64,000 bases of DNA from Verrucomicrobia bacterium UBA1200 (GTDB lineage: Bacteria > Verrucomicrobiota > Kiritimatiellia > RFP12 > UBA1067). Positions 3,830-50,789 of this stretch are shown in pieces (within the stretch, counting starts at the first letter, position 1; each line of letters begins with the position of its first letter). Where the stretch lies: NCBI GenBank assembly GCA_002309765.1, contig DBXY01000022.1, positions 134,361-198,360 on the forward strand, read 5' to 3'. The notes under the pieces are model-generated. The model was not told the origin of the DNA and searched no databases. It saw nothing but the letters and a program-made list of their open reading frames with translations. The translations under genes and the position numbers were made by a program.

Positions 3830-6800
3830 TCGGGAATGATCTCCAATCCGTTGATCCGCGCGTCGCGATGCTCATCCGCGAGACGTTTTCCGTTCACAAA
3901 CTCCAACACAATTTTCCCCTCGTCATCGCTCTGGATGTGTTTGACCTCCACCACGACACCCTTCCATAGCCCGCCCGCCGCGCCGGCGGCGTCAAAATCG
4001 TTCAGGATCACCTTCCCGTTCGCCTTCACATCGAACCGGCACTTACCGGGACCCTTTTCTCGGGAATGCTCGGCCCAATGGAATCGTACCGTATACGGAT
4101 GATTCTTGGCGGTCATCAGGCAGGTATAGACACTTTGCCCCCACCGCACGCTACGGTAAATGTCGGGCGGCCCAGCCATCTTCGTTTCAGACAGGTCCAT
4201 GTCTTCCGTCTGGAAACCGCACGCGCCCTCCAAGAAACCGGGATCCTGCGCAAAGTTTCCGCGCGCATAACCGCCGCAGTTAATCCGCACTGTTGACTGC
4301 GGTTTCTGGGGGCGGGGCAGGAAGGTGAATCCCTTTTGGTGCGCCCACATGGGAGCGTCAACCGAAGCCGTCTCGTTCGGCATCACCCGATCCCCTTTCG
4401 CGACGGTGACGTTCCATCCGTCCAGATATACGATCGGCTCGTCGTCTTTCAAATCCTCCGCCGCGCAGGAAATTTGGATTAACCGCCGCTTCTTGGGCAG
4501 AATCGAGAAATAGTTGTCGCTGTAGGTTACGGGCAGTATCCGCTTCCCGCTCTTTTTCCCGCGCAGCTGTAAATGGGTCAGCAAGGCCACGGTCCCGCTG
4601 TTGTTAGCCAATTCCACTTTTACGACCCGCTTGCCAGCGGCCTGTTCGGCCGAGACGGAGGCAACATCCAACGTGACTCGCGGCAACCTGTCAAGCTCTT
4701 TAAGGTCGTCATACTCGACCAACCGGTTGTCATCGCGCAGGTCATCCGTCTTGGCGGGGTTGCAGGCGCGGTTGTGCCAATAGAAATTCTCGCTGACCAG
4801 CTTCTTCTGCGCGTCAAATAGTTCCAACTCAAAGAAATGTACCTTCGACAGGTTCTCTGGCCACTTAACCGTCCCCAGCGTCGTCACTGCGGTTCTGTCC
4901 ACCATCACCGGCCAAGTGGAGTTACCAGCAACGCTGCAGTCCAAATTGTAAAACGTCGCCTGCGCCGATCCAGAAAAAGGCGCGGGGTCGTGGTTGACCA
5001 CTTGGACAATACCGCCGTCCGCAGATTCGTTGAAGAAAATGTGGCGCGGCTCACACGCCTTTTTGATTCCGAAATAAGTAGCGTGGGGATCAAGGTCGTA
5101 CGGCAGCATCTGCCAAATCAAACTGGGTTGGGCGGGAATGCTCATCCAAAGCAGTACCCCCTGCATGGGGGCGAACATCCGCCCGATCCGCCCCTCGTAA
5201 ATCGCACGGTGCGTCTCGTAGTTCATCATCTGCGCCTTGCGGACGAAATCCGGGAAGTTTTTCGGTTCGCCGTACCGCGTCTTCATGAACCGCGGATACT
5301 TGCGGCCGCCCGCCGAGCAGAAATTGTGTTCCGCCCAAGAATCGGTAATCCCCTCCCACTCGGAAGCGGGGAACATCGACATCAGCGATTCGATGGTCGG
5401 CAATGAAAAGCTGCCGATTTCGGTCTTGAAGCTCTCCCTCCGATTCCAATTCGGATCCTCGTAAAAACGGGCAAGCCGCGCCGGAGGTGTCCAGTCATAC
5501 GGTCCACCGGAATTGAAACCGTTCCCGTCTCCGGAGTTGGGCTGATAATGCCGCGTCGGATCGGTTTCCAGCAGCACCTGCCGCACCGCGTCGTCCAGAT
5601 ACTTCGGCGGTGTTGCCTCATTGCGGCTGCACCAGAGAACAATCGACGGGTGGTTGCGAAGACGGAGTGCCGCATCCCGGACGTGAGCGAGATAAAGGTC
5701 GGTATTGATTGGATCCGCGCTGTTGATTTGCCAAAACTCTTCCCACAGCAAGATGCCATACCGGTCGCAAGCATCGGCGAGTTCATCGCTCATGCTCTGT
5801 CCGCCCCAATCGCGGATAAAATTGAGGTTCGCCTCGCGGTGCATACGGACCTGATGGTCGATTCGCGTCCGGTTGACCCGTTTCAGCGCCTCGTCAAGGC
5901 CCCAATTCCCGCCGCGCATAAAGACACGTACTCCGTTCACGCGCAGCGCCAGATTCGGATTGCCCGGCTCGAAGTAGGAAAACTTTCGGATACCGAACGG
6001 GACGCTGCTTTGATCGCTTACCACGCCATCCGCAGTAAAAACGGCATCCAGCCGATAAAGATGGGGTTCCCCCAGACCGTTCGGCCACCAAAGCCGGGGT
6101 TTCGCCAGAGTCAGCTGAGGCTCCTCATCCGGCGTAAACGAAACCGTCTTGCTCCGCCACGGGGCAAGCTCGACCCGTCTTTCCATCGTCACCGAATCAA
6201 ACGCCACCTTGAGCGTGCCAGAAACTGGCCGTTCCGTCACGTTCCGGAGTGGGATATCAATGCGTACCGTGGCGACATCCAATCGCGGCAAATTTGGGAG
6301 ATCGGTAACAACGGCGGGATCCTCCATCACCGCACGGCCGGTGGCGGTCAGCGTGACCTTACGCCAAATGCCGCTGTTACGGTCGCGGATACCGCTCAAC
6401 CAATCCCACCCGACCGCGCATCCGAAGGTGGGGCCGTCCAAACGGCCCACGCCGCCACACGGACCGCCGGTCGATCCCATCACATGTTCAGACGGCACCC
6501 CCACCGTCGGCTGCGGCGAAATCCTCACCGCGATGGACATCTCCTCGCCGGGCTTCACGTCGCACCGCGAAAGATCGAATCTACCGCGCTTGAACGCGCC
6601 CATCATCCGCCCCGCGATTCGCCCGTTGACCCAGATTTCGGCGGCGTAGTTGATACCGTCGAACGTCAGCCAAACCACCCGGTCCTTAAACCGTTCCGGC
6701 ACCCTTACCTGTGTACGATACCACCAATCTTTGCGGCATAGCGATTCGGGGATTTTTTCAGGGCGGTTATTCTCATCGTAAAGCGGTTCGGGATAGGCCC

Positions 6801-39547: not shown

Positions 39548-40351
39548 TCAAGGCTGCCTGGCAATACCGAACACCAACCCGCCGGATGCCGCCGGCATAG
39601 GCACCACCTCGTGCGCCGTCATCCAGCCGTATTGCACCGGCCACTTTTCTGGCACGCCTTTGAGATACGGCCCCTTCCAACCGACCGTTCCTTCCCGAAT
39701 CACAATCTTTGCCCGCGTTGGAACCAATGCGCCGGCCAAATGTTTCTCACCCAGATAGCTGTAGGTAATATCCGCTGGCGGTCCGTCCAGCTCCGGGGCG
39801 TTACCGAGAAAAGTGATGGTTTGCAACGAGTCGCACAGCACGAAACAGTTAAAGCCTAACCGGCGGAGCGTCGGAGGAAAGGTTACCGAGGCCAACGACA
39901 GACAGTTGGAAAAAGCCGCCGTTCCGACCATCTCCACCCCGCCGAGAAAAGTCACATTCGTCAGGGCCGTACACCATGAAAAAGCCTGATCCCCCACCTC
40001 GCGCACCGTTGCCGGGATAGTGATTGACGTCAATTGCGAGCACGCCACGAAAGCCGAATCCATAATCTTGCGCACCGGCAGTCCGTCGATTGTCTCCGGA
40101 ATCACGAGCGCTCCCTTGTAACTTGGCGGGACTCCCACCCGCTTCGGATAAACCGTACCGATCGTCACATACGTCGCCCGGTCCTCACCCGAAACGCCCG
40201 GTTCGCACACCTTGCTGTAGAAAAGCCCCGGCACCGGATCCCCGGCATCCATTTGATACGGATAGCTGGAGTAACGTCCCACCCAATCGCAATACGCCAC
40301 GCTCGCGAACATAATCCCGACCGCAATAACCCGAATCGTCTTTAACGTCAT
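39548..40351 (-). CDS. BspA-type leucine-rich-repeat (LRR_5) surface protein
   Basis: Start trimmed to ATG 40351 (GGGGGTGA upstream; MTLKTIRVIAVGIMFASVAYC). The repeats are IPETIDGLPVRKIMDSAF..CSQLTSITIPATVREVGDQAFSWCTALTNVTF... Confidence 0.7.
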   Translation of the reverse strand: MTLKTIRVIAVGIMFASVAYCDWVGRYSSYPYQMDAGDPVPGLFYSKVCEPGVSGEDRATYVTIGTVYPKRVGVPPSYKGALVIPETIDGLPVRKIMDSAFVACSQLTSITIPATVREVGDQAFSWCTALTNVTFLGGVEMVGTAAFSNCLSLASVTFPPTLRRLGFNCFVLCDSLQTITFLGNAPELDGPPADITYSYLGEKHLAGALVPTRAKIVIREGTVGWKGPYLKGVPEKWPVQYGWMTAHEVVPMPAASGGLVFGIARQP

Positions 40352-40576
40352 AAATTCACCCCCGGTTAAAACCCCGCGCCAACGACTCACCTTGCCGCTT
40401 TCCTTGACGCAGTTACTATCCCGGTTTTTGCTCCTTTCCCCATTCACAATTGCCATTGTAACACAATTTCACCGGAAATCATATAACAAATCGTTCGAAA
40501 CGGCTTTTTTGCAAAACGAAAACCGCGGCGTGGCGGGTTTCCCCACCCGCGCCAGCATTTCCCGCGCAATCTCCTG

Positions 40577-40906
40577 TCACTCTTCATCCAGAAACTCCTC
40601 CCACGACATCAGTTCTTCATCGTCACTACATGAAACCCGCTTGCCATGTTTTTCACGACGGCGCTTTTCTTTATCCTCCTTTGCGGCCAGTTTCTCGTTT
40701 TCGATCTTAGTGATAATCTCAAGCGCCTTGTCGCGGGTAACGCCATAAATGCGCATGACCATCTTTGCCTTTACATCGTTGAATAACTCATCCGAAGTCT
40801 TTTTCTTCTGGTGGCACTTCTTGCGGGAAGACGATTTACGGTCTTTTGCAATGCCGGCAAAGAACTCCTCGGCGGACATTATCTCAAGAGAATCATCCCA
40901 TTCCAT
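40577..40906 (-). CDS. highly charged small protein of unknown function, with a repeated acidic motif at both termini
   Basis: ORF with AAGGAA 7 nt before ATG 40906. Alternative starts are 40912 and 40927. The sequence is K/E/D/R rich. The N-terminal DDSLEIMSAEEFF and C-terminal DDEELMSWEEFL motifs match each other. It starts 15 nt after the sigma-r4 ORF stop. Confidence 0.5.
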   Translation of the reverse strand: MEWDDSLEIMSAEEFFAGIAKDRKSSSRKKCHQKKKTSDELFNDVKAKMVMRIYGVTRDKALEIITKIENEKLAAKEDKEKRRREKHGKRVSCSDDEELMSWEEFLDEE

Positions 40907-40920
40907 TTTCATTTCCTTTC

Positions 40921-41109
40921 TTAACAATCCGTCATTATATCGGACAAGTTGGTGACTCCGAAACGACGCAGAAGCTGCAGCCGCAGCTTTTCGAGTGCCC
41001 GTTTTTCAATCTGTCTAACCCCCTCGCGGGTAATTCCCATCATTTGTGCGGTTTCCGCCAACGAATGGGAAATCCCATAACCAATGTGCCCGACATCATT
41101 TTTTGCCAT
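40921..41109 (-). CDS. standalone sigma-70 region 4 (4.2 HTH) domain mini-protein, 62 aa
   Basis: AAGGAG sits 7 nt upstream of ATG 41109. SLAETAQMMGITREGVRQIEKRALEKLR closely resembles the region 4.2 consensus (..T.ERIRQIE.KALRKLR). No region 2/3 coding sequence lies upstream. Confidence 0.65.
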   Translation of the reverse strand: MAKNDVGHIGYGISHSLAETAQMMGITREGVRQIEKRALEKLRLQLLRRFGVTNLSDIMTDC

Positions 41110-41194
41110 TTTTGAACTCCTTAACGATTCCCTCTTTAAGGGAGGTTATGATTTTCAACCATACCCACTATATTCTTCTCGCGAACTAGGGAAA

Positions 41195-41223
41195 ATATTA
41201 CAAAGAAAATGAAGAATTATGAA
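41195..41223 (-). promoter_or_regulatory. promoter candidate for the sigma-r4 cassette
   Basis: On the minus strand: TTCATA (41223..41218), a 17-nt spacer, then TAATAT (41200..41195). The implied leader is about 80 nt. Confidence 0.4.
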
Positions 41224-41237
41224 TGAAAATGAAGAAT
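41205..41237. promoter_or_regulatory. two 13-nt direct repeats overlapping the candidate promoter (possible operator)
   Basis: GAAAATGAAGAAT at 41205..41217 and at 41225..41237, with 20-nt phasing. One copy fills the -35/-10 spacer. Confidence 0.5.
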
Positions 41238-41294
41238 GGATTAGTCGTTGTTAGCCGACAGCAGTTAGACGTTAGTGGCAAATCGTCCAAATTT

Positions 41295-41326
41295 CCAACC
41301 GTCAAACGGTCAAACCATTCAACCAA
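41295..41326 (+). repeat. 8-mer tandem array
   Basis: CCAACCGT CAAACGGT CAAACCAT TCAACCAA. Confidence 0.6.
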
Positions 41327-41358
41327 TTTATGCACGGTTTCACGCTCGACATCTCATC

Positions 41359-41392
41359 TTTTTTAGCCGCAAAGGGCGCATAGAGCGCAAAG
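41359..41392 (-). repeat. phased 9-mer element, copy D (inverted relative to A-C)
   Basis: The reverse complement reads CTTTGCGCT CTATGCGCC CTTTGCGGC TAAAAAA. Confidence 0.75.
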
Positions 41393-41421
41393 AAGAGTAG
41401 CTAGCAGCTAGTTGTTAGTGA

Positions 41422-41453
41422 TAAACGGTCAAACGGTTCAACTATCAAACTGT
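41422..41453 (+). repeat. 8-mer tandem array
   Basis: TAAACGGT CAAACGGT TCAACTAT CAAACTGT. It overlaps the small hairpin CTGTGGT-aaca-ACCACAG (41450..41467), a possible terminator for the orphan gene on the minus strand. Confidence 0.55.
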
Positions 41454-41484
41454 GGTAACAACCACAGAACGGCACAAGTAGTTG

Positions 41485-42540
41485 TCATGGCGCGATGTTT
41501 GGCTGTTTCTCTCGTGCATTTGGATAGTTCAAACTATGATATGGAAGAAACTCAAGATTCGTGTCGTTCTCTGTCGGATTGGCATATATTTGAATGCCGA
41601 ATTGAGCTTTTGCACCTTTGCCGTAACGATCCAAAGGGTATGTACGACTATAACCGATAGGGCCATATATTTTCCCATAATGTGCGCCTATAAGTTTTCC
41701 ACTTGACGAGAAACGGGGACGGATTCGGAAAACAAGACATTTTTCAATATTATGTCGTTGATTAAGCATAATTGATCGAGACAAGGGTCGATTTATTGCG
41801 GCATTATGAGGAGACTTTAACTCGCTCCCATCATAATCCACAATATAATACCCACACTCCCGGTCTGTCCATATCAGAGTCAAGGAAACTGTTTCAGAGG
41901 CATCTGCAACAAGGCGCATCCATTCTCTATAATCATCCTCTTGAATATTTATTTCTTTACCATGGTATTCGATAAGTAGATCCGCATGTTTTCCCTTTCC
42001 CATTGGCTGAACCCAATCCATCTCCATTAGGTCGAAACCGTAAGAAGTGTTAAGTTCAGGGAAGTAATAATCATAATATTTGGGATGCGCATACATCGGA
42101 ATCGGATTACGCTTGCGTTTTAATACCACTTTATGCTCCATACCGTATGGTTGCCATTTTCCGTCTTTAAGTGATGCGCCAGACAGGCCGGGTATGTAAA
42201 AACCGCCGTGGGTATAATAGTACCCGTCTTTGTTGACGGAATACCGCACATCGCCTATCGTTGCGCCCCGAACCACCAAAACCCCCTTTCGGTCCGTCAC
42301 GCCATTCACTCCGTTGTGGTCGGTTGACCAGAGTAATAGCCCGGCACTGATTTTAGCGCCGGAAACGGGAGTCCCCTCCTCATCCACCACCTTGAACACT
42401 ATCTTGGCCTTTGCCCCGAACGTTTTAGCCTGCTTGAGGGAATCCCCAACCACCACCATGCGGGGCAGGTTCATCGCCCCAATCAACCATACTGCGCCAA
42501 TGATCCCAATGAATGTTACCAATGTCTTTCTTGCCATCAT
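41485..42540 (-). CDS. membrane-anchored hypothetical protein (N-terminal TM segment, CarboxypepD_reg-like Ig domain, unknown C-terminal domain)
   Basis: MMARKTLVTFIGIIGAVWLIGAM is a TM anchor. KIVFKVVDEEGTPVSGAKISAG looks like a carboxypeptidase-regulatory-like beta-sandwich. AAGGAG SD upstream. The G+C content is markedly lower than in neighbouring genes. Confidence 0.55.
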   Translation of the reverse strand: MMARKTLVTFIGIIGAVWLIGAMNLPRMVVVGDSLKQAKTFGAKAKIVFKVVDEEGTPVSGAKISAGLLLWSTDHNGVNGVTDRKGVLVVRGATIGDVRYSVNKDGYYYTHGGFYIPGLSGASLKDGKWQPYGMEHKVVLKRKRNPIPMYAHPKYYDYYFPELNTSYGFDLMEMDWVQPMGKGKHADLLIEYHGKEINIQEDDYREWMRLVADASETVSLTLIWTDRECGYYIVDYDGSELKSPHNAAINRPLSRSIMLNQRHNIEKCLVFRIRPRFSSSGKLIGAHYGKIYGPIGYSRTYPLDRYGKGAKAQFGIQIYANPTENDTNLEFLPYHSLNYPNAREKQPNIAP

Positions 42541-42658: not shown

Positions 42659-44242
42659 TTATTTCTTTAGTCCGGTCTCGCGCTCTACCGACTTTTCGCA
42701 ACACGCTTTGATCGAAGCCTCGCCCGCATAGATACGAATCGCGCCTTTGGTACGGGTGATGCCGGTGTAGAGAATTTCACGAGTCAGAAGCGGCAAATCG
42801 GCTTCCGGCGGCATGACAATCGACACATTGCCGAATTCCGACCCCTGCGCCTTATGGATGGTGGTCGCAAACGCCAGTTCGGTGCCGTTTAGCAATTCCA
42901 AGCGAAGCTTACGGACACCTTTCTCCAATGTCGGTAGGTAGATGTACTGCGGCTCGTCAGGTATAACCACGCCGACATCACCGTTTTGCACCTCCAGCGA
43001 ATGATCGTTCCGCGTAATCATCACAGGCATCGGACACTTCTTGCCAAGCAACCGCTTAATATACTCGTTCAGGCTTTCGGTGCCGTACGGCCCTTTCCGA
43101 AGGACGCAGAGGACGCGAAATCCGTTAAGCTTTTCCAGGGCCGACACCGCCTCTGAACATTGGGATAACTCTCCGAATCCGTTGCGAACCGCACTTTGGA
43201 AATCGTTCCATTTTGCAGGCGCAAAAGGATCTTTCCCCGAAATGTTCCGAAAACTGGCCTCTTTCTCCTCCCGCAACACCGCCATCACGGCGTCGAAACT
43301 CCCGTCCCTGCCGCTGTTGACGGCAGACGCCAGACGATCAATCGTGCCACCCGACGGGAAACGCTTGCTAATCATAAGCTTAGCGACATTATGATCGAAC
43401 AAGTCACACAGGTCTCCAAACACCCGCCCCTGATCCACGGAGGCCAGCTGATGAGAATCGCCAATCAGCGTCAAAGCGCACTCCGGCGGTAACGCGTCCA
43501 GCAACTTCGCCATCAGCGGCAACCCGATCATACTTGCCTCATCGACAACGAGCCAGTCCATCGGTAGCGGATTCGAACGATCGTGTTTGAACGACACAAA
43601 ATCAGGATTCGTCCCCAACAGCGTGTGAAGCGTGGTCGCGGGCTGGATACCTTCCAGTAACCCTTGCTTTTTCAGATCCACAAGCGATTCGTTAATGCGC
43701 GCGGCGGCCTTGCCGGTCGGGGCGGCAAGGGCAATCCGTGCATCAGACATACGCTCCCGCATCAGGTTAACCGCCTTCCCCAACGTGAACGTCTTGCCCG
43801 TACCAGGGCCGCCCGTGAGGATTGAGAACCGGTGCGCCAACAGGGTGGGAATAGCCGGACACTGGTCTTCCGGGCGCAACATGGCGTACTCTTCACGTTG
43901 CGGAACAGTGACATCGGAGAGCCATGGGGCGCAAGACATGGCGGTAACCCGGCTGCGCACAATCTGCTCGTACCGCCAATTCCGCCGCGTGTAGAGCAGA
44001 TCGCCAAACCGCACAAACGGCGTGTCAACCGTGTCCGGATCGGTCTCCGCCGTGACAACGGAGACTATTTCAGGCACTCCGTCCAGCAACGCCGCCTCAT
44101 CGCCGCTCAACCGGCAGCACACATTTCCGCCGTCGGTCTCATCATTGTCATCCGACACCCCGATGGCGCGAACGCAGAGTTCCGGTACATCCTCACGCCC
44201 GCCCATCATCCGCTTTACCAAATCCGCGATTGCCGTTTTCAT
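42659..44242 (-). CDS. recD: exodeoxyribonuclease V subunit alpha
   Basis: Walker A LTGGPGTGKTFTLG, DEASMI, and the C-terminal ATTIHKAQGSEF / YTGITR SF1 helicase motifs. Its start overlaps the recB stop. Confidence 0.85.
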   Translation of the reverse strand: MKTAIADLVKRMMGGREDVPELCVRAIGVSDDNDETDGGNVCCRLSGDEAALLDGVPEIVSVVTAETDPDTVDTPFVRFGDLLYTRRNWRYEQIVRSRVTAMSCAPWLSDVTVPQREEYAMLRPEDQCPAIPTLLAHRFSILTGGPGTGKTFTLGKAVNLMRERMSDARIALAAPTGKAAARINESLVDLKKQGLLEGIQPATTLHTLLGTNPDFVSFKHDRSNPLPMDWLVVDEASMIGLPLMAKLLDALPPECALTLIGDSHQLASVDQGRVFGDLCDLFDHNVAKLMISKRFPSGGTIDRLASAVNSGRDGSFDAVMAVLREEKEASFRNISGKDPFAPAKWNDFQSAVRNGFGELSQCSEAVSALEKLNGFRVLCVLRKGPYGTESLNEYIKRLLGKKCPMPVMITRNDHSLEVQNGDVGVVIPDEPQYIYLPTLEKGVRKLRLELLNGTELAFATTIHKAQGSEFGNVSIVMPPEADLPLLTREILYTGITRTKGAIRIYAGEASIKACCEKSVERETGLKK

Positions 44243-47200
44243 TTAACGTTCTCCATTCCAAACGCCGCCGCGAGTTCTTCCAGCATCGCCTCGCATGGGC
44301 GGTCTGCAAACACCGCCGATTCGCAACCAGCCGCCACTCCGCGCAGAAAATAGTATCGGATACCGCCGAAATTCCGTTCCCAAAAGTACTTATCTTTCAG
44401 GTTCTCTTTTAAGAACCGGTGCAACACCGTCGCATACAAGAGATACTGGAAAAAGTAACCGTGTTCAGCCATCTCCGCCGTAACGCCTTCTTTGGAAAAA
44501 CCGCTTTTACATCCGTTGATTGAATTCGACTTCCAATCAACTACATAATAATAGCCGTTGTGGCGGAAAAGCAAATCCAGATACCCTTTTAGGAATCCGT
44601 TCGGCACTAATCGGTTCCACCCATCCATCGCACGAATGAACGGGCGTTTTTCGGAATCTTCTCCCCAGTATCTTTCGATAACGGTTTTGATGGCCGCCGT
44701 GGTAGCCACCGCGTCTCTCGAAGAAAAGTCGAACTCCCATTCGCTGAAACGATCAGCCGCCTTGACTTCGCGCAACGAAAACGTTTCGCCGTCAGGGGCG
44801 TTAATCCGGCGGCTCAACGTCGCTTTCATCATTTCGGCGACCACATCCGCGTTATCGTCGGGCAATCCATGCATTCTCAACGCCGATAGCGTAGCCGTTC
44901 CCACCGTATCATCATCCGCCGCGAAATCAATCTTTTCCAATATCGAATGCCAACATGTGCCCACCGCCAAGCCACCCGGCAAAGCGAAGACTTGATGTTC
45001 TTTGCCTTTCGGATTTCCAGTCGCCGCCGCGGCGGAATTGGTTTCGGTCGCGCCATCCCAATCACGCCCGTCATCGTCTTTACGCTCGGAAGGCGATAGC
45101 GAAGAGTAACTGCCTTTGGACGGTGTCAAATCAAACTCGTGCAGCCTTTTTTCCGGTTTGGGAGAACCTTGGTTCCGGTTCTGCTGCGGCACATAATTTT
45201 CCTGATCTTTAGGCTGGTAATCCTCATTCTCGCGAATCGGGCTGTATTCTGAATCGATGCCGGACTGCGCCAAATGACGTTTGGCGTTGGCCAGCAGCCG
45301 ACAAACCGGCCACGATTCGGGTACGTTTTCCGGCACAATCAACACCGTCCGTTTCGTTGCCCGCGTCATCACCACATAGAGCAACCTGATTCTCTCGTCG
45401 ATAATCTCGCTATGATGTTTCCCGGTAATTTCCGTTGAATAGACAAACGTGCCGTCATCATCATGATACCCGTAAGGCCCTTTGTCGTTTTGGTTTTTCT
45501 TGTCACTCACGGGCAGGGGAACAATCACCACGGGAAACTCCAGTCCCTTCGAGACGTGCATGGTCATGATTTTCACCGCATCATGCTCACTCTCAAGTTC
45601 ACGCGCATATTCTTCGCTGCGCGCTTCAGGCCCCGCGGCACCGAAATTATTGCTGTATCCTTTTGCGATGCGGTCCGCCACCCATGCGATCAGTGCTTCC
45701 GGTGACGGCCCTTGCTGTCGGACGGTACGGATGGAGAGATCAATCAGCTGAATCGCGTCCGCCAGTTTTCGCTCTCCGTCTGGTTGCGCCGCGAACCGAC
45801 TGCGGAAATTGCAACGGTCATAGTTCTCCAGTTCGGCCATCGCCGCATCAAACCCGCGTTTCATCCAGACACGGTTCAACTCCTTGAACTTGGCCAGCGC
45901 CTGGGCCAATGTCTCGCCCTCTCCCTCGGCATCGGCATCCAGCTCACCCGGTGTGAAGTCGAAGAACGAGGAAAGCATGGCGGCCCGCACTCGACCCGCG
46001 CCGCCCTCCAGCGCCATTGCTTGAAGCAAGGTGAGGAATTCTTTCGCCAAGGGTTGACCGAACACATTGCCGGCGTGTTGCAACACCACCGGCACATTCT
46101 TTGCGCGAAGCGCATTGCGCAGTATATCGCCACTTGTATGACTTGGCACAAGAATAGCGATATCTTTCGGCGTGATTTTCCCGCGCTGTTCCTCAAGAAC
46201 CGATAGCACCGACTCCACAACCGCGGAGTTCATGCCTTCCGAAATCGCCAATCCTTCCTTATTTTCTTTAGTCTTGTGATTTTTTACATGGATTACGCGG
46301 AAGGGCTGAGGATCATCCGCCCCATTGATTTGAAACGCTTCTCTTGTGTTGTCTGCTTCTAAATTCGCTGAATAGTCAATCGTTGCATCGCCAAAAGTGT
46401 AATCGGTTTTCCCGTCCGCAGACCGAAAATCTTTGAAAAAAAGATTCACCGCGTCGATTAGCCGAGGGGTTGAACGGTAGTTCTTGCCAAGACAAAACGT
46501 ATTGGCGGAGACATCGTCGCGCCTTGCGGCGGCCGCGTAAGTGTAAATGTCGCCGCCGCGAAAAGAATAAATCGCCTGCTTGGGATCGCCCACAAAGAAG
46601 AGTGTCGGCTTTACCACCCCGTCAGGAACATCGAGAAAGACGCGACGGAAAATCTCGTACTGTACGGGATCCGTATCCTGAAACTCATCAACCACCACCG
46701 CCTTGAACTCCTGACGCAAATGCACCGCCAACTTACCAGCGGTATCGTTGCGCAACGCATCCCGAAGCGATAGCAGTAGCTCGTCGAATGTGCGAGTGCG
46801 ACGGGAGTCACGTGCGGCATGGTATGCCTCGACGATCTCTTGGGCTTTCGCCAACATCTGTCCGTTCGGCGAGTTTTCATCGGCAACGATTTTCGCGTCG
46901 GGATGGCTTGCGAGTTTTACCACATATTCAGTCATCAGCCCCAAATCCGGTTTATTCTGCGGCCGTTCGCGCGCCACGCGCCACCAATCGCGCGCCATCC
47001 GGTAGAGCAACGCGGAATCGCTATCGGTAAGCTCGGCATCGAACGGTGCCCCTGTCTCGAAAGCATACCGCGCCAAAGCGCGACGGCTAAACCCGTGGAT
47101 GGTGGAGATTGCGGCACAGTCGAACTCCATCAGCGCGATCTCCAGACGGGTACGGGCAATTTCATTGGAGACTTCGGCTACTTTTACGCGTCTGCACAAA

Positions 47201-47484
47201 TCTTCAAGGCGGCTGCGTTCTTTGTCATCGACCTGTTCCCCGTTGTAGTATGCGTACAACAGTTGCAACACTTTTCTCAAGCGGTCGCGCAATTCCTTCG
47301 TCGCTTTTTCGGTGAAGGTCATCACTTGTATTTCGGCTACGCGCAATCCCCGCTCGGCCACCAGCCGGGCGTAGATGTTCTGGATGCTATAGGTTTTTCC
47401 CGTCCCGGCGGATGCCGCGACAAGATGCGGTCCGTCCAAAGCTACCGCATTATCGAAAACCCGGCCTTTACAATTATTATTCAT
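44239..47484 (-). CDS. recB: exodeoxyribonuclease V subunit beta (UvrD-type helicase + PD-(D/E)XK nuclease)
   Basis: VAASAGTGKTYSI, VDEFQDTDPVQYEIF, and the C-terminal nuclease block GYLDLLFRHNGYYYVVDWKSN. Confidence 0.85.
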   Translation of the reverse strand: MNNNCKGRVFDNAVALDGPHLVAASAGTGKTYSIQNIYARLVAERGLRVAEIQVMTFTEKATKELRDRLRKVLQLLYAYYNGEQVDDKERSRLEDLCRRVKVAEVSNEIARTRLEIALMEFDCAAISTIHGFSRRALARYAFETGAPFDAELTDSDSALLYRMARDWWRVARERPQNKPDLGLMTEYVVKLASHPDAKIVADENSPNGQMLAKAQEIVEAYHAARDSRRTRTFDELLLSLRDALRNDTAGKLAVHLRQEFKAVVVDEFQDTDPVQYEIFRRVFLDVPDGVVKPTLFFVGDPKQAIYSFRGGDIYTYAAAARRDDVSANTFCLGKNYRSTPRLIDAVNLFFKDFRSADGKTDYTFGDATIDYSANLEADNTREAFQINGADDPQPFRVIHVKNHKTKENKEGLAISEGMNSAVVESVLSVLEEQRGKITPKDIAILVPSHTSGDILRNALRAKNVPVVLQHAGNVFGQPLAKEFLTLLQAMALEGGAGRVRAAMLSSFFDFTPGELDADAEGEGETLAQALAKFKELNRVWMKRGFDAAMAELENYDRCNFRSRFAAQPDGERKLADAIQLIDLSIRTVRQQGPSPEALIAWVADRIAKGYSNNFGAAGPEARSEEYARELESEHDAVKIMTMHVSKGLEFPVVIVPLPVSDKKNQNDKGPYGYHDDDGTFVYSTEITGKHHSEIIDERIRLLYVVMTRATKRTVLIVPENVPESWPVCRLLANAKRHLAQSGIDSEYSPIRENEDYQPKDQENYVPQQNRNQGSPKPEKRLHEFDLTPSKGSYSSLSPSERKDDDGRDWDGATETNSAAAATGNPKGKEHQVFALPGGLAVGTCWHSILEKIDFAADDDTVGTATLSALRMHGLPDDNADVVAEMMKATLSRRINAPDGETFSLREVKAADRFSEWEFDFSSRDAVATTAAIKTVIERYWGEDSEKRPFIRAMDGWNRLVPNGFLKGYLDLLFRHNGYYYVVDWKSNSINGCKSGFSKEGVTAEMAEHGYFFQYLLYATVLHRFLKENLKDKYFWERNFGGIRYYFLRGVAAGCESAVFADRPCEAMLEELAAAFGMENVK

Positions 47485-50400
47485 GCTTTTTGCAACCTCG
47501 CCGAACTGACAAATACCATGTCCCTCAACACCATTTCGCGCAACTCGTCCGGCAGCGCGTCATCCTTCCAGCCGACATTTAGATCTGGCAAATTTTCCGG
47601 TAACGGATTGAAAGCAAGTTCCAAAATCTCATCAAGCTTCTGATTCGCCCGCTCCGCGTCCATCGGATGGATACACATCAGCTTACCGTCGCCATACATA
47701 ATGACGGATAGAAATCGCAGACCTGCCGCATGGCCGACCAAATGGCGCACCAGTAATTCGCTTTCCGCGCTGCCCAACTCATCCGCCCCGTATTCCGAAT
47801 AAACCATGTGATGATCAGTGCCGTTATCTTGGGCAAACTTCATCATGCCGGTCACCAGCACGTTATGCCCCTTCACCAATCGGCACACATCCACACGCGC
47901 CGGATTAGCTTCGGCCACCCGCCGCAATATATCAACGGCTCTAACCGATTCGCTCTTGTACCCTTCCGGAGAACGTTCAAACCGCATTTTTCTCCGCATG
48001 ATTTTATTACGGTCGTTCCCGTTTTTAATCTGATCAACCGCTTCTTCGACCGAAGTCCTATCGCAAGCCCGACCTTCCTCTATCAAGAGGTCTCCGGGCA
48101 ACTGTTTATCGTCATCACCCAGCTTGATCATAACCCTCTCACCATAGGATAGCTTCGTGGCCGTCGCTTCCTCGTCAACCAGTTCATCGCTTGAGGCGTC
48201 AGCACCCCACATTTTCAACCGTCTTCTCAAGAAGGCGTTTGGTTTGGCAAGGAACTCTGACAAATCATCAAAATACACCACGGTCTCGCCCTCGGACGCG
48301 AACTTAAACGCGGTAATAGTATTCGTCACGTTTTCATCTGGCCGTTTGTCCGCTTTCGCCAGAATCGCCGCCGCAGCCGCGCGATCGGCGGTGGAATAGT
48401 TGGGCGGCAACGGGGAATCGCCCTCAAACTCGTAGAAGTACCGGATGCTGTAGGACTGCAACGGATGCTCATAACGGGTTATGCCGTTTTTTCGCTCCCG
48501 ATCAAACCAGTCCAAAAGATCGCTGAGCGGCACCGCCGGCGGAATCTTCTCATTCGAGCGGATGTCATGACCCACATAACTCAACGCAAGCCGCTCACGC
48601 GCACCGAGAACTGCCTTGAGTAGGGAGAATCCGTCCCTTTCCCGCAGCGACGCGTCATACGGCGTGGGATGCCGCCCAATCTGGTCGAATGACGGGCGGG
48701 TACCGTCGCGGGGGAACTTGCCGTCGTTCAACCCGCAGACCCACACCAGTTTCGCGGGGGTCGCCGCAGAACTTTTGAGTGGCGCAAACCTCACTGCATC
48801 ACCCACCGCCGCGCTATACGGACGTACACCGCGAATCGCGCTTTGCACCGCGCTAAGAAACACCTCCGCCTCGATTTCCGGCGGGACACCTACTCCGCCA
48901 TCCGCCACCCAAGCATCCATCGCGTGCTGCTCCGCGGATTTAATCGCGCGGCGGACCGCGGTCAACTCTTTCCGGTTGTCCGATCCCGAATCGTCATCCC
49001 CGGCATTGTAGAAACAATCGACCGCCTCCCGCAACCGTTCTCCCCAATCTTCAGCGGTTTTGCCACCGCGCAGTTCTGCCCGAAACGCGTGTAACTGTTT
49101 TACGAATTTGTCCAGTGCCGCCACAAGACGGGTGCGTTCCTGTTCCACCTTACCGCAAGGGCGCAAAACTCCGATTTCCCCGGCGCTGACGAGCGAATCG
49201 GGGTTTCCCCTCGGCCCCATCAAGGCATCGAGTTCCAGACGATCAAGTCCGCGCCGCCAAGTGAATGGGTATGGCTCAGCAGGGTTGGCCAAGCCAAGCC
49301 CCAGCGACTCCGCCACATCCCGGTCGTCATAACCCCAGTGGATGTTCGCATCACGTACCATCCGCTTCAACACATCGATCCCGTCAGCGGCGATTCCAAA
49401 TTTGCCGCGGATGGTCGGCACGCTTAAAAGAGAAAAGACCGCGCTCACCTCGAACCGGTTCTCCCGGAACGCAAGTAATTCACCAAAGGAATGCATGAGC
49501 GGCGATTCATCGGCGACCAGTCCGTCCAGTTTCAAGGGGATTCTCGCCGCCACTTCGCGCTCGGTACCGAACACCGCTTCTGCCAGCGGCGCGTAGGTAG
49601 CCCAATCGGCACACAAAACCAACACCTCCCCCGGCTTGGTTTGAGGATTTTCCTCAAAGAAACGGTAGATGCCGTTGCGTACCGCCTCCAGTTCACGGCG
49701 CGGCGAATGGCAGACGTGCAATTCAACATCCAACTCGCGCAACGGTTTGAACCGGCATCCGGTTTCCGCCGCTTCCGCCGGAACGGGCTGGGAGAAAACA
49801 TCGGATAGCCAATAGCAATTTCCCTCGGAAATGTCAACCTCCGAAAACAGTGCCCCGCGCCCGCCGGTAGCAAGGGCACCAAGGAGCGCCCGGTCCGCCA
49901 CGTTTCCGATTTCGGGCATACTGGGTTCCAGCGCCTCATCGCCAATTTCCATCGCGCTACGCAAAGCCGTCACCCGTTGACGAATACTCTCCCGCTTCCC
50001 CTCCACATCCATCCAAAAACCGGGGCAGGGGCTGAAACTCCAAACCACAGTGGGAATTGAATCGGCAATCCGCTTCAAAAACTCAAAATAGGGCCACGGC
50101 GCGAACGCAACATCAAACACATGGATGGACTTGTATCTTGGGAAACCATGCACAAACGCCGTCTCCGGATTTGACTCTCCGCTAAATACCCCAACGTAGT
50201 CCTTCGTATAAGTGTTCCCGTTAACCCGAACCAGTCTGCGATACAACTCACGCTGCCACGCCTCTTCGTCCCTTTTTAGTTCGCCACCGTTCTCCCAACG
50301 GTCCAGCATGGTATAACGGTAATTGAGATAATCGTCGAACATCTCTGCCAGTTTCGCCGCCAACTCGTAACGGCGGAGCGCCGAAGCCTTCTCCCCGATG

Positions 50401-50789
50401 TAGGAGAGCAAAGGACCGAAAACCGTATCGACAGGATTCTGCCCCGGATCTGCGGCGCGGAGTATCGCGTCGATCCGCCAAGCCAGCACTTCTTTGGCGT
50501 ACGGATGCGCCGCCGCGTTACGCTGAATCCCGTCCTTGCCGCGCACCGCAGCCAACCAGTCGTTAACGAACTCGGCAACCGGCTTATAGTCAATGTTCGC
50601 CAAAATGCGGCGGGAACCGGATTTGCGGCGCAGAAGAAAATAATCCTGAAGCCAATTGCGGGTGGATAAATCACCCACCACCACGCAGGTGCGGTCGAAC
50701 GGTTCGCCGCCGGCCCCATTCTCCCAGTGCGCGAACAGCCCTTCCGCCAGCACTTCCAGCCGGTCACTCCAAAAAACTTCCAACGACAT
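47481..50789 (-). CDS. recC: exodeoxyribonuclease V subunit gamma
   Basis: 1102 aa. It has the RecC-like N-terminus MSLEVFWSDRLEVLAEGLF and lies upstream of, and overlapping, recB in the canonical recC-recB-recD order. Confidence 0.75.
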   Translation of the reverse strand: MSLEVFWSDRLEVLAEGLFAHWENGAGGEPFDRTCVVVGDLSTRNWLQDYFLLRRKSGSRRILANIDYKPVAEFVNDWLAAVRGKDGIQRNAAAHPYAKEVLAWRIDAILRAADPGQNPVDTVFGPLLSYIGEKASALRRYELAAKLAEMFDDYLNYRYTMLDRWENGGELKRDEEAWQRELYRRLVRVNGNTYTKDYVGVFSGESNPETAFVHGFPRYKSIHVFDVAFAPWPYFEFLKRIADSIPTVVWSFSPCPGFWMDVEGKRESIRQRVTALRSAMEIGDEALEPSMPEIGNVADRALLGALATGGRGALFSEVDISEGNCYWLSDVFSQPVPAEAAETGCRFKPLRELDVELHVCHSPRRELEAVRNGIYRFFEENPQTKPGEVLVLCADWATYAPLAEAVFGTEREVAARIPLKLDGLVADESPLMHSFGELLAFRENRFEVSAVFSLLSVPTIRGKFGIAADGIDVLKRMVRDANIHWGYDDRDVAESLGLGLANPAEPYPFTWRRGLDRLELDALMGPRGNPDSLVSAGEIGVLRPCGKVEQERTRLVAALDKFVKQLHAFRAELRGGKTAEDWGERLREAVDCFYNAGDDDSGSDNRKELTAVRRAIKSAEQHAMDAWVADGGVGVPPEIEAEVFLSAVQSAIRGVRPYSAAVGDAVRFAPLKSSAATPAKLVWVCGLNDGKFPRDGTRPSFDQIGRHPTPYDASLRERDGFSLLKAVLGARERLALSYVGHDIRSNEKIPPAVPLSDLLDWFDRERKNGITRYEHPLQSYSIRYFYEFEGDSPLPPNYSTADRAAAAAILAKADKRPDENVTNTITAFKFASEGETVVYFDDLSEFLAKPNAFLRRRLKMWGADASSDELVDEEATATKLSYGERVMIKLGDDDKQLPGDLLIEEGRACDRTSVEEAVDQIKNGNDRNKIMRRKMRFERSPEGYKSESVRAVDILRRVAEANPARVDVCRLVKGHNVLVTGMMKFAQDNGTDHHMVYSEYGADELGSAESELLVRHLVGHAAGLRFLSVIMYGDGKLMCIHPMDAERANQKLDEILELAFNPLPENLPDLNVGWKDDALPDELREMVLRDMVFVSSARLQKA

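Follow-up and report, generated by a model that had tools for sequence, protein, structure and literature searches.

What can a protein do that consists of one DNA-binding region of a sigma factor and little else? This question is raised by a stretch of 64,000 nucleotides (nt) from the Verrucomicrobia bacterium UBA1200 (contig DBXY01000022.1), which was analysed as a whole and is called the window below. Its minus strand holds an open reading frame (ORF) of 62 amino acids (aa), ORF62, which encodes region 4.2 of an RpoD-type sigma factor and which we call a mini-sigma. It is closely followed by the gene of a second small protein, the partner (Table 1). Our results show that relatives carry an RpoD-like sigma factor that ends where the mini-sigma begins. 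We favour the reading that the mini-sigma is the detachable -35 module of a naturally split sigma factor, tied to a protease through the partner, and put the probability of this reading at roughly 0.5. It is based on the dovetailing ends of the two pieces, on the conservation of both, and on their linkage.

The domain content of ORF62 is clear. Pfam Sigma70_r4 (PF04545) matched it with an E-value of 3e-11 and 43.1 bits, which passes the gathering cut-off of 24.1, and residues 14-43 correspond to profile positions 20-49 of 50, i.e. to the helix-turn-helix (HTH) of region 4.2 only. On the NCBIfam RpoD model NF004208, it aligned to positions 583-617 of 631. A profile search of the PDB with the ORF62 family found the region 4.2 of solved SigA/RpoD proteins (E-value 8e-16, residues 326-359 of Bacillus subtilis SigA), and comparison of the family with region 4 of Kiritimatiellae sigmas by hhalign gave a probability of 98.5%. 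Among the Pfam sigma domain models, region 4 was the sole significant match, with none to region 2 or 3. Moreover, helix 4.1 was absent from the Pfam profile, PDB and hhalign alignments, so that region 4 itself is incomplete. Lacking both region 2 and a whole region 4, ORF62 is not a complete sigma factor of the sigma-70 family. Its AlphaFold2 (AF2) model has a mean confidence (pLDDT) of 73 and helices at residues 17-23, 28-50 and 55-59; a Foldseek search with this model ranked sigma factors at the top, none of them significant at such a small size. These results agree with the first-pass annotation, which had been made from the letters alone and had described a 62-aa ORF with a near-ideal Shine-Dalgarno sequence (AAGGAG, 7-nt spacing), a product restricted to region 4.2, and no sigma region 2 or 3 beside it.

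A complementary polypeptide that lacks exactly region 4.2 was found in relatives. Three loci (L002, L003 and L004) encode an RpoD-like sigma of 386 aa at ~0.9 kb from the mini-sigma gene. In the L002 protein, Pfam regions 1.2, 2 and 3 are present and Sigma70_r4 is matched at positions 2-23 of 50 only. The protein ends with '...LTDREREVLDYRFGLT' and a short unrelated tail, and the next gene follows 46 nt later. On NF004208, the truncated sigma occupies positions 368-585 of 631; it dovetails with the mini-sigma, with a short overlap at YG[IL]T, and the mini-sigmas themselves start with GYG[IV]T.[TS]LEET.

This truncation characterizes an entire clade. Eight clusters at 90% identity (P0178-P0184 and P0249) all end just after 'REREVLDYRFGL[TAKS]', i.e. 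DYRFGL, at the junction between regions 4.1 and 4.2. They share 61-74% mutual identity, range from 297 to 388 aa in length, and have divergent tails. When the L002 sigma was used as a query, its closest relatives were all truncated (P0179-P0184, 359-388 aa, 64-74% identity, without PF04545), and full region 4 was kept in all more distant complete matches (~410 aa and longer). The nearest full-length homologues read on past the YRFGL break point with DG and further residues, as do the homologues at L020 and L025. A truncated sigma, P0298, was also seen on a 37-kb contig. RpoD models gave the best match for all these sigmas, but with scores below the model cut-offs. A metagenome scan with the sigma alignment gave, among the matches listed, only distant RpoDs (35-53% identity), and literature searches returned nothing on sigma factors of Kiritimatiellae.

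Both pieces are under purifying selection, since the ratio of nonsynonymous to synonymous substitution rates (dN/dS) is well below 1 in each, at 0.25-0.39 for the truncated sigma and 0.11-0.22 for the mini-sigma (unsaturated pairs). The homologues of ORF62 are proteins of 53-74 aa, and residues E29, V31, R32, Q33, I34, E35, K36, R37, A38 and L39 of the recognition helix are invariant across the family. We take R28, E29, R32 and Q33 of ORF62 to correspond to R584, E585, R588 and Q589 of Escherichia coli sigma-70. On this presumed numbering, ORF62 retains four of the five residues that match -35 DNA contacts; the fifth, R586, is replaced by G30 in the mini-sigma of the window alone.

Truncated sigma and mini-sigma are encoded at one locus in two distinct gene orders, which is a small sample. 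At L002, L003 and L004 the gene order is ClpP, mini-sigma, p72, RapZ_C and the 386-aa sigma, while at L124 it is SbcD, SbcC, the truncated sigma (380 aa), p361, a ResIII helicase, mini-sigma, partner and AAA+. Wherever the context of the truncated sigma was seen (L002, L124 and L125), it is followed by a conserved protein of 361 aa and a ResIII helicase. Full-length sigmas are found in these orders: p361, ResIII, a 443-aa sigma, RtcR, a 235-aa protein, partner, AAA+ and ClpP at L020; a 483-aa sigma, p361, ResIII and RtcR, then partner, AAA+ and ClpP at L025; and SbcD, SbcC, p352, ResIII and a 449-aa sigma at L206. No mini-sigma gene was found in the fetched flanks (~15-21 kb) of these three full-length loci.

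Within our sampling, the mini-sigma family is confined to rumen and gut bacteria of the Kiritimatiellae/Lentisphaerae type. Region-4.2-only ORFs of 63-95 aa were also frequent on viral contigs (L035, L040, L046, L055 and 16 other IMG/VR contigs), with the match near position 6000 in most of them. One small protein, P0119 (73 aa), joins the N-terminal half of a mini-sigma (…GYGITHTLEETAQLLGI) to the core of a partner (ARGKKPEKLF…KMVMRIYGVSRAKALEII). Judged by its sequence, it may be a natural fusion or deletion product, as it resembles an L124-type pair minus ~330 nt.

The second gene of the pair encodes a protein that is as charged as the first-pass annotation had described. From the start codon preferred by gene callers and homologues, 14 nt past the ORF62 stop, the partner has 109 aa, of which K/R/D/E make up 48%. 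The same acidic motif had been noticed at both termini (IMSAEEFF and LMSWEEFL), and these twin motifs are beyond chance because they are conserved across the partner family. A word search gave 21 homologues, and an exhaustive profile search 206 clusters at 50% identity, all of 37-171 aa. The core consensus FxxxKxKMVMRIYGV[ST]RxKAxEII is present in 164 of 169 representatives. Relative to this core, the peptide M-[ST]-A-E-E-F-F is N-terminal in 75 representatives, C-terminal in 76 and at both ends in 34, with one shared consensus at either end. Across all fetched loci, the motif is essentially restricted to partner termini. The dN/dS of the partner is 0.23-0.6. Where a taxon was titled, nearly all of the 22 partner loci from the genome scan come from metagenome-assembled genomes (MAGs) of rumen or gut Kiritimatiellae, Lentisphaerae or Verrucomicrobia, and the viral contigs scanned contained no partner-family gene.

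The partner is a new family, without significant match in Pfam, NCBIfam, PHROGs, PADLOC, the PDB sequence search or Foldseek. We considered several assignments and rejected them. Homology to the mini-sigma or to sigma region 4 is not claimed, as hhalign gave a probability of only 2.5-13%. An anti-sigma of the ASD or zinc-binding type was matched neither in Pfam, NCBIfam and PDB nor significantly in the fold search, and the known protease adaptors ClpS, SspB, MecA and RssB showed no match in sequence or fold. The AF2 model of the partner (pLDDT 72) contains a confident hairpin of two helices (residues 40-56 and 60-88, pLDDT >90), flanked by low-confidence linkers on which both motifs form short helices. 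Motifs at either or both termini, on such linkers beside a confident hairpin, point to a layout of tethering peptides. A folded hairpin that bears the same peptide at both termini and is the product of the first operon gene would, as modelled, fit a tethering adaptor or an anti-factor.

What does the partner accompany in other genomes? The neighbourhoods of all loci were mapped with local hidden Markov models (HMMs), which gave 27 distinct partner loci and 12 distinct mini-sigma loci. The mini-sigma gene directly precedes the partner in eight of the 27 partner loci (the window, L006, L007, L015, L016, L022, L027 and L124), so the two ORFs do co-occur elsewhere. The dominant association of the partner, however, is not with the mini-sigma gene but with a Cdc48-like AAA+/ClpP operon. 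In 23 of the 27 loci, a ~725-aa ATPase with two classical AAA domains lies downstream of the partner, and ClpP is present in most of these loci, in either order. The closest solved relatives of this ATPase are Cdc48, VAT and p97. Its extreme C-terminus is conserved as ...KKDGxxxxxIGF, and IGF is presumably the type of tripeptide that docks unfoldases onto ClpP. The N-domain (residues 1-250) has no Pfam match, and literature searches returned nothing on a Cdc48-like partner of ClpP. Seen from the other side, 11 of the 12 mini-sigma loci lie within ~2.5 kb of partner, ClpP or AAA+ genes, the exception being L001; at L120 the mini-sigma gene stands between ClpP and AAA+, and at L002 just after ClpP.

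The partner operon has its own upstream signals. In most loci, a sigma-54-type promoter, TGGCA[CT]G-N4-[AT]TGCT, lies 43-57 nt upstream of the partner start, preceded by two direct repeats (GGTCAGAATTTGAC...GGTCAGATTATGAAC), and the conserved sequence upstream of the operon contains TTGAC-type repeats. In L020 (5040-6992) and L025, a gene for a sigma-54 activator of the RtcR type lies ahead of the operon on the other strand. Orphan copies of the partner occur in addition to a full operon elsewhere on one contig (L033 with L021) and within one MAG (L029 with L013). The orphan at L029:7911-9624 has a sigma-54-like promoter, an ADP-ribosylglycohydrolase gene before it and the RNA ligase gene RtcB directly after it, which suggests that RtcR-type operons of more than one kind begin with a member of the partner family. 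Directly ahead of the partner, the position is often taken by a family of ~200-265 aa (L017:7100-7855, L020:7146-7853, L013:5160-5912, L125:6086-6682 and L124:14320-14937). By eye it resembles a sigma factor of the extracytoplasmic function (ECF) type (ADREDAVEEAFHKLM and an HTH-like stretch at the C-terminus), an assignment that Pfam and PDB profile searches did not support. A known anti-phage defence system was also considered and rejected, as PADLOC gave only generic similarity, of region 4.2 to MzaA (E-value 4.5e-4) and of the AAA domain to IetA.

How might these components work together? One piece would provide sigma regions 1.2 to 4.1, and the other a separate region 4.2 module that reads the -35 element. 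The mini-sigma would complete the truncated sigma within the RNA polymerase holoenzyme as its -35-recognition subunit, and a truncated sigma would presumably be encoded elsewhere in the genome from which the window comes. Because the mini-sigma gene is almost always found beside partner, ClpP or AAA+ genes, the availability of the mini-sigma may be coupled to the protease. By contacting the mini-sigma or the AAA+ protein, the partner would link the mini-sigma to the AAA+/ClpP protease as an adaptor or anti-factor, and -35-dependent transcription by the split sigma could thereby be switched. A more detailed scheme can be drawn, in which the split falls inside domain 4 and a stress-induced (RtcR/sigma-54) Cdc48-like AAA+/ClpP sets the level of the ~60-aa HTH subunit via a two-headed adaptor, as a reversible switch between -35-dependent and -35-independent transcription. 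We consider this full scheme doubtful.

Several observations weigh against a split sigma factor. The first-pass annotation had suggested that ORF62 is half of one; this stands in so far as an RpoD-like sigma of relatives ends where the mini-protein begins and shares its locus in L002 and L124, but not for the window, which contains no sigma gene of any kind within its 64 kb. The loci are few, with both pieces in two, a truncated sigma without mini-sigma gene in one (L125, none within 12.7 kb) and a full-length sigma in three. The truncated sigma has a higher dN/dS than expected of a housekeeping sigma, and a sigma without region 4.2 can act alone at extended -10 promoters. Two close relatives, L016 (20-605) and L010 (~520-560), differ by an indel of ~585 nt that contains a promoter-like TATAAT, the mini-sigma gene and an upstream activating sequence, with nearly identical flanks on both sides; hence, the mini-sigma gene is dispensable at that site. 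In addition, the mini-sigma HMM scores region-4.2 proteins of viral contigs at 42-54 bits (tail included), as against 32-42 bits for region 4.2 of Kiritimatiellae RpoD-like sigmas, and no sigma region 2 or 3 gene occurs within 6 kb of these viral proteins. On this evidence, the family may have been recruited as an autonomous HTH. The region 4.2 core of the mini-sigma is 47% identical to each length class of RpoD-like sigmas (<495 aa and at least 495 aa). Given these equal identities and the higher-scoring phage mini-proteins, the mini-sigma gene may have arisen either by fission or by recruitment.

The main rival explanation, built on these viral relatives, is that ORF62 is an autonomous small HTH regulator of a class common in phage contigs, which binds TTGAC-like DNA unaided, regulates itself or the protease operon and plays no part within RNA polymerase, the truncation of the sigma being unrelated. 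We see this as possible, if rather unlikely. Its targets may be the octamer arrays upstream of ORF62 or the activating sequence that precedes the partner operon, both of which contain TTGAC-type repeats. Among the 56 top viral-contig matches examined, 20 encode region 4.2 (or 4.1 plus 4.2) alone, and their higher scores than host sigmas include the C-terminal tail 'LRxxLxxxGIxxLxDL'. Two distant members of the mini-sigma family, P0007 and P0008, sit in phage-like replication modules, and the indel variation between close relatives would also suit such a regulator. Yet, such a regulator leaves unexplained why the sigma of a whole clade ends at the start of the mini-protein and why the two share a locus. 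The upstream activating sequence is found with and without an adjacent mini-sigma gene, the octamer arrays of the window are not conserved upstream of other mini-sigma genes, the viral contigs lack the partner family, and no phage genes were found at the window locus.

Two further explanations treat the pair as something other than a DNA reader. ORF62 could mimic sigma region 4 and act as a decoy that titrates a region-4 binder, either an anti-sigma or the partner, in a switch of the PhyR/NepR kind from which AAA+/ClpP removes one player; or the pair could be a dead remnant, i.e. the 3' end of a sigma gene and an orphaned leader gene, left behind once this locus had lost its protease operon. 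Both are made less likely by the invariance of most DNA-contact residues and by dN/dS values well below 1, and we judge a decoy to be quite unlikely and a remnant very improbable. A decoy would agree with the gene order, in which a small helical protein comes after a sigma-like gene much as in sigma/anti-sigma pairs, and with the two-helix hairpin of the partner model, as small anti-sigmas of the class-II type are two-helix hairpins. Elsewhere a different protein of ~200-250 aa fills the slot of the mini-sigma gene upstream of the partner; this protein has no detectable sigma homology, however, and the partner no significant similarity to any anti-sigma or sigma region 4. Nor does a decoy require DNA-contact positions to be kept. 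A remnant would explain why the protease genes that usually follow the partner are missing here, why the pair lies in a low-GC island, and why damaged versions exist, such as the shortened 41-aa mini-sigma gene of L012 and the fusion P0119. Decay had been named in the first-pass annotation as what would overturn its reading, should relatives carry an intact sigma gene at this place. A full-length sigma does occur near the partner operon in relatives (L020 and L025), but the mini-sigma gene is not decaying, because its dN/dS is 0.11-0.22, its DNA-contact residues are for the most part invariant and a Shine-Dalgarno sequence of its own precedes it. Both ORFs of the pair are intact with good ribosome-binding sites, all core and motif residues of the partner are retained, and dN/dS against distant homologues is well below 1. 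The same pair occurs in six further contigs from six different samples, essentially of one species; being near-identical, these contigs carry no independent information on conservation.

A sigma factor split between the truncated sigma and the mini-sigma can be compared with several known systems. In B. subtilis, SigO and RsoA (YvrI and YvrHa) are encoded by neighbouring genes, of which one provides the -10 and core-binding part and the other the region 4 that reads the -35 element. As in the system proposed here, two polypeptides from neighbouring genes share the work of one sigma factor. However, SigO-RsoA is ECF-related and cut between the sigma-2 and sigma-4 domains, whereas the sigma described here is RpoD-like (regions 1.2 to 4.1), has its cut within domain 4, after helix 4.1 and before the 4.2 HTH, and would function in trans. 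SigO-RsoA is mentioned in PMC7826278 and PMC8103513.

The sigma gene is also present as a 5' and a 3' piece at the DNA level in our loci, as in the sigK/skin system. In B. subtilis and Clostridioides difficile, that interrupted gene is rejoined by site-specific excision. Excision of this type was rejected here, because the order in L002 is reversed, with the 3' piece ahead of the 5' piece, and because both have start and stop codons and a Shine-Dalgarno sequence of their own. The annotated genes in between, at loci with truncated sigma and mini-sigma, included no recombinase. The sigma-2-like late sigma gp55 of phage T4 works with gp33 at the beta-flap site of region 4, and thus likewise combines a minimal sigma with a separate small protein in the role of region 4. 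By contrast, gp33 reads no DNA and has no relationship to region 4, while ORF62 is a true homologue of region 4.2 with most DNA-contact residues. Kumar and colleagues reportedly showed in 1993 that E. coli sigma-70 deleted for region 4.2 is active at extended -10 promoters. An RpoD-type sigma without region 4.2 can thus still initiate, and a truncated clade can be functional; that protein was a laboratory construct, whereas the truncation described here occurs naturally, is conserved and goes with a region 4.2 encoded by its own gene. To our knowledge, none of these four systems is cut inside domain 4 of a natural RpoD-type sigma. The pair is also not a described system as a whole, as had been suspected at first sight.

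The region-4.2 mini-proteins of phage contigs are the best-scoring relatives outside the family, similar in length (63-95 aa), HTH and C-terminal tail. They differ in context, being found among phage replication or early genes without a partner-family gene and without the ClpP/AAA+ module. For the partner, the tethering adaptors SspB (of ClpXP) and RssB (of RpoS) serve AAA+ proteases, and with RssB a sigma is controlled through an adaptor. The likeness lies in a small folded core with short terminal peptides on flexible linkers, and in a partner gene that adjoins the gene of an unfoldase. The differences are that sequence and fold are dissimilar, that the partner has two identical motifs per chain, and that the unfoldase is Cdc48-like with a C-terminal IGF.

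In the window itself, only the two small genes are present and the AAA+ and ClpP genes are absent, which makes this copy an orphan pair. The leader upstream of ORF62 holds no supported ORF, Rfam match or tRNA, in line with its earlier description as 375 nt of non-coding, repeat-rich DNA. Other features read from it fared less well. The two 13-nt direct repeats (41202..41237) proved to be part of a low-complexity tract with a period of 7-10 that is conserved in no other lineage. The proposed promoter (TTCATA-17-TAATAT) is present, but with 8 of 12 consensus positions it is no better than chance. A sigma-70 promoter scan of 40300..41700 gave 0 sites, compared with 2.1 expected in shuffles. Given a weak promoter and a low-complexity tract, the layout suggestive of autoregulation finds no support. 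A sigma-54 promoter of the form TGGCAYG-N5-TGCW is absent from the whole window. Exact copies of GTTTGACS number three within 135 nt, against 15 in the entire 64 kb, and the 18-nt box of the leader is restricted to contigs of the same species. The partner is probably co-transcribed with ORF62, and a hairpin downstream is a probable intrinsic terminator closing the two-gene unit, judged by its shape rather than by statistics; the terminator scan did not list it.

Table 1. Coordinates of the mini-sigma, its partner and associated features. Positions without a locus name refer to the window.
Feature	Position	Strand	Remarks
Mini-sigma ORF62	40921..41109	minus	62 aa, ATG start; region 4.2 HTH and short C-terminal tail only
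Shine-Dalgarno AAGGAG of ORF62	41117..41122	minus	read directly from the sequence; 7 nt to the ATG at 41109
Partner ORF	40577..40906	minus	109 aa from ATG 40906; 111 aa from alternative ATG 40912
Partner motif, N-terminal copy, (I)MSAEEFF	40859..40879	minus	family consensus M-[ST]-A-E-E-F-F
Partner motif, C-terminal copy, (L)MSWEEFL	40589..40609	minus	stop codon three residues on
Invariant partner core FxxxKxKMVMRIYGVTRxKAxEII	40712..40783	minus	turn of helical hairpin; most confident part of AF2 model
Non-coding leader, 375 nt	41110..41484	minus	repeat-rich, low GC; ORF, repeat and GC scans
T-rich tandem tract, period 7-10	41202..41238	minus	holds both 13-nt repeats; overlaps weak candidate promoter
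18-nt box CACTAACGTCTAACTGCT	41260..41277; second copy 41403..41420	minus	2 matches, 0 expected
Six tandem octamers like GTTTGAC(C/G)	41276..41323	minus	-35-like core TTGAC; repeat analysis
Second array, four GTTTGAC-like octamers	41419..41450	minus	inside ~51-nt module duplicated 143 nt apart
G+C-rich hairpin and U-run GUUUUCGUUUUG, probable terminator	40512..40556	minus	RNA fold shape; z-score only -1.5
Truncated sigma	L002:2974-4134; L124:7186-8328; L125:6698-7864		
Cdc48-like ATPase	L008:2201-4384		homologues in L006, L010, L012, L016, L018, L020, L021, L024, L025, L027, L028, L031, L124
Sigma-54-type promoter, examples	L007:3680-3793; L016:480-600; L021:7880-8000		

The surroundings of the pair show some recurrent elements. 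A low-GC island (41-48% GC, compared with ~56% in the flanks) extends over positions 40400-42200, i.e. 40.4-42.2 kb, and spans the pair, the leader and ORF351 (41485..42540, minus strand), for which only a weak CarboxypepD_reg-like match was obtained. Beyond it, positions 42659-50789 on the minus strand encode a RecD-like helicase (527 aa, AAA_19/AAA_30/UvrD_C_2) followed by two ORFs of ~1,100 aa, together probably an operon of the RecBCD type. In L017, L021 and L032, too, RecD-like genes are found a few kb ahead of the partner operon. Proteins of the BspA type with LRR_5 repeats are encoded in the window (39548-40456, minus strand) and at L012:3409-4668, L033:8255-9966 and L206:11414-12598, so that at several loci such genes stand immediately downstream of the partner/protease module or beside the sigma gene.

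Sigma factors are usually described as single chains, and RNA polymerase spaces their domains 2 and 4 for the reading of the -10 and -35 elements. If the truncated sigma and the mini-sigma do act together, a conserved natural split of an RpoD-like sigma at the junction of regions 4.1 and 4.2 would represent a new architecture of promoter recognition, and a natural test of how much the covalent linkage of region 4.2 matters. We regard the system as a candidate split sigma factor, embedded in an undescribed protease module. Two components of this module are themselves undescribed, namely a family of small proteins (206 clusters) in which a terminal peptide is duplicated and a bacterial Cdc48-like unfoldase with an IGF tripeptide next to ClpP. 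Together, the data suggest that regulated proteolysis is tied to transcription in an abundant, uncultured lineage of the gut and rumen.

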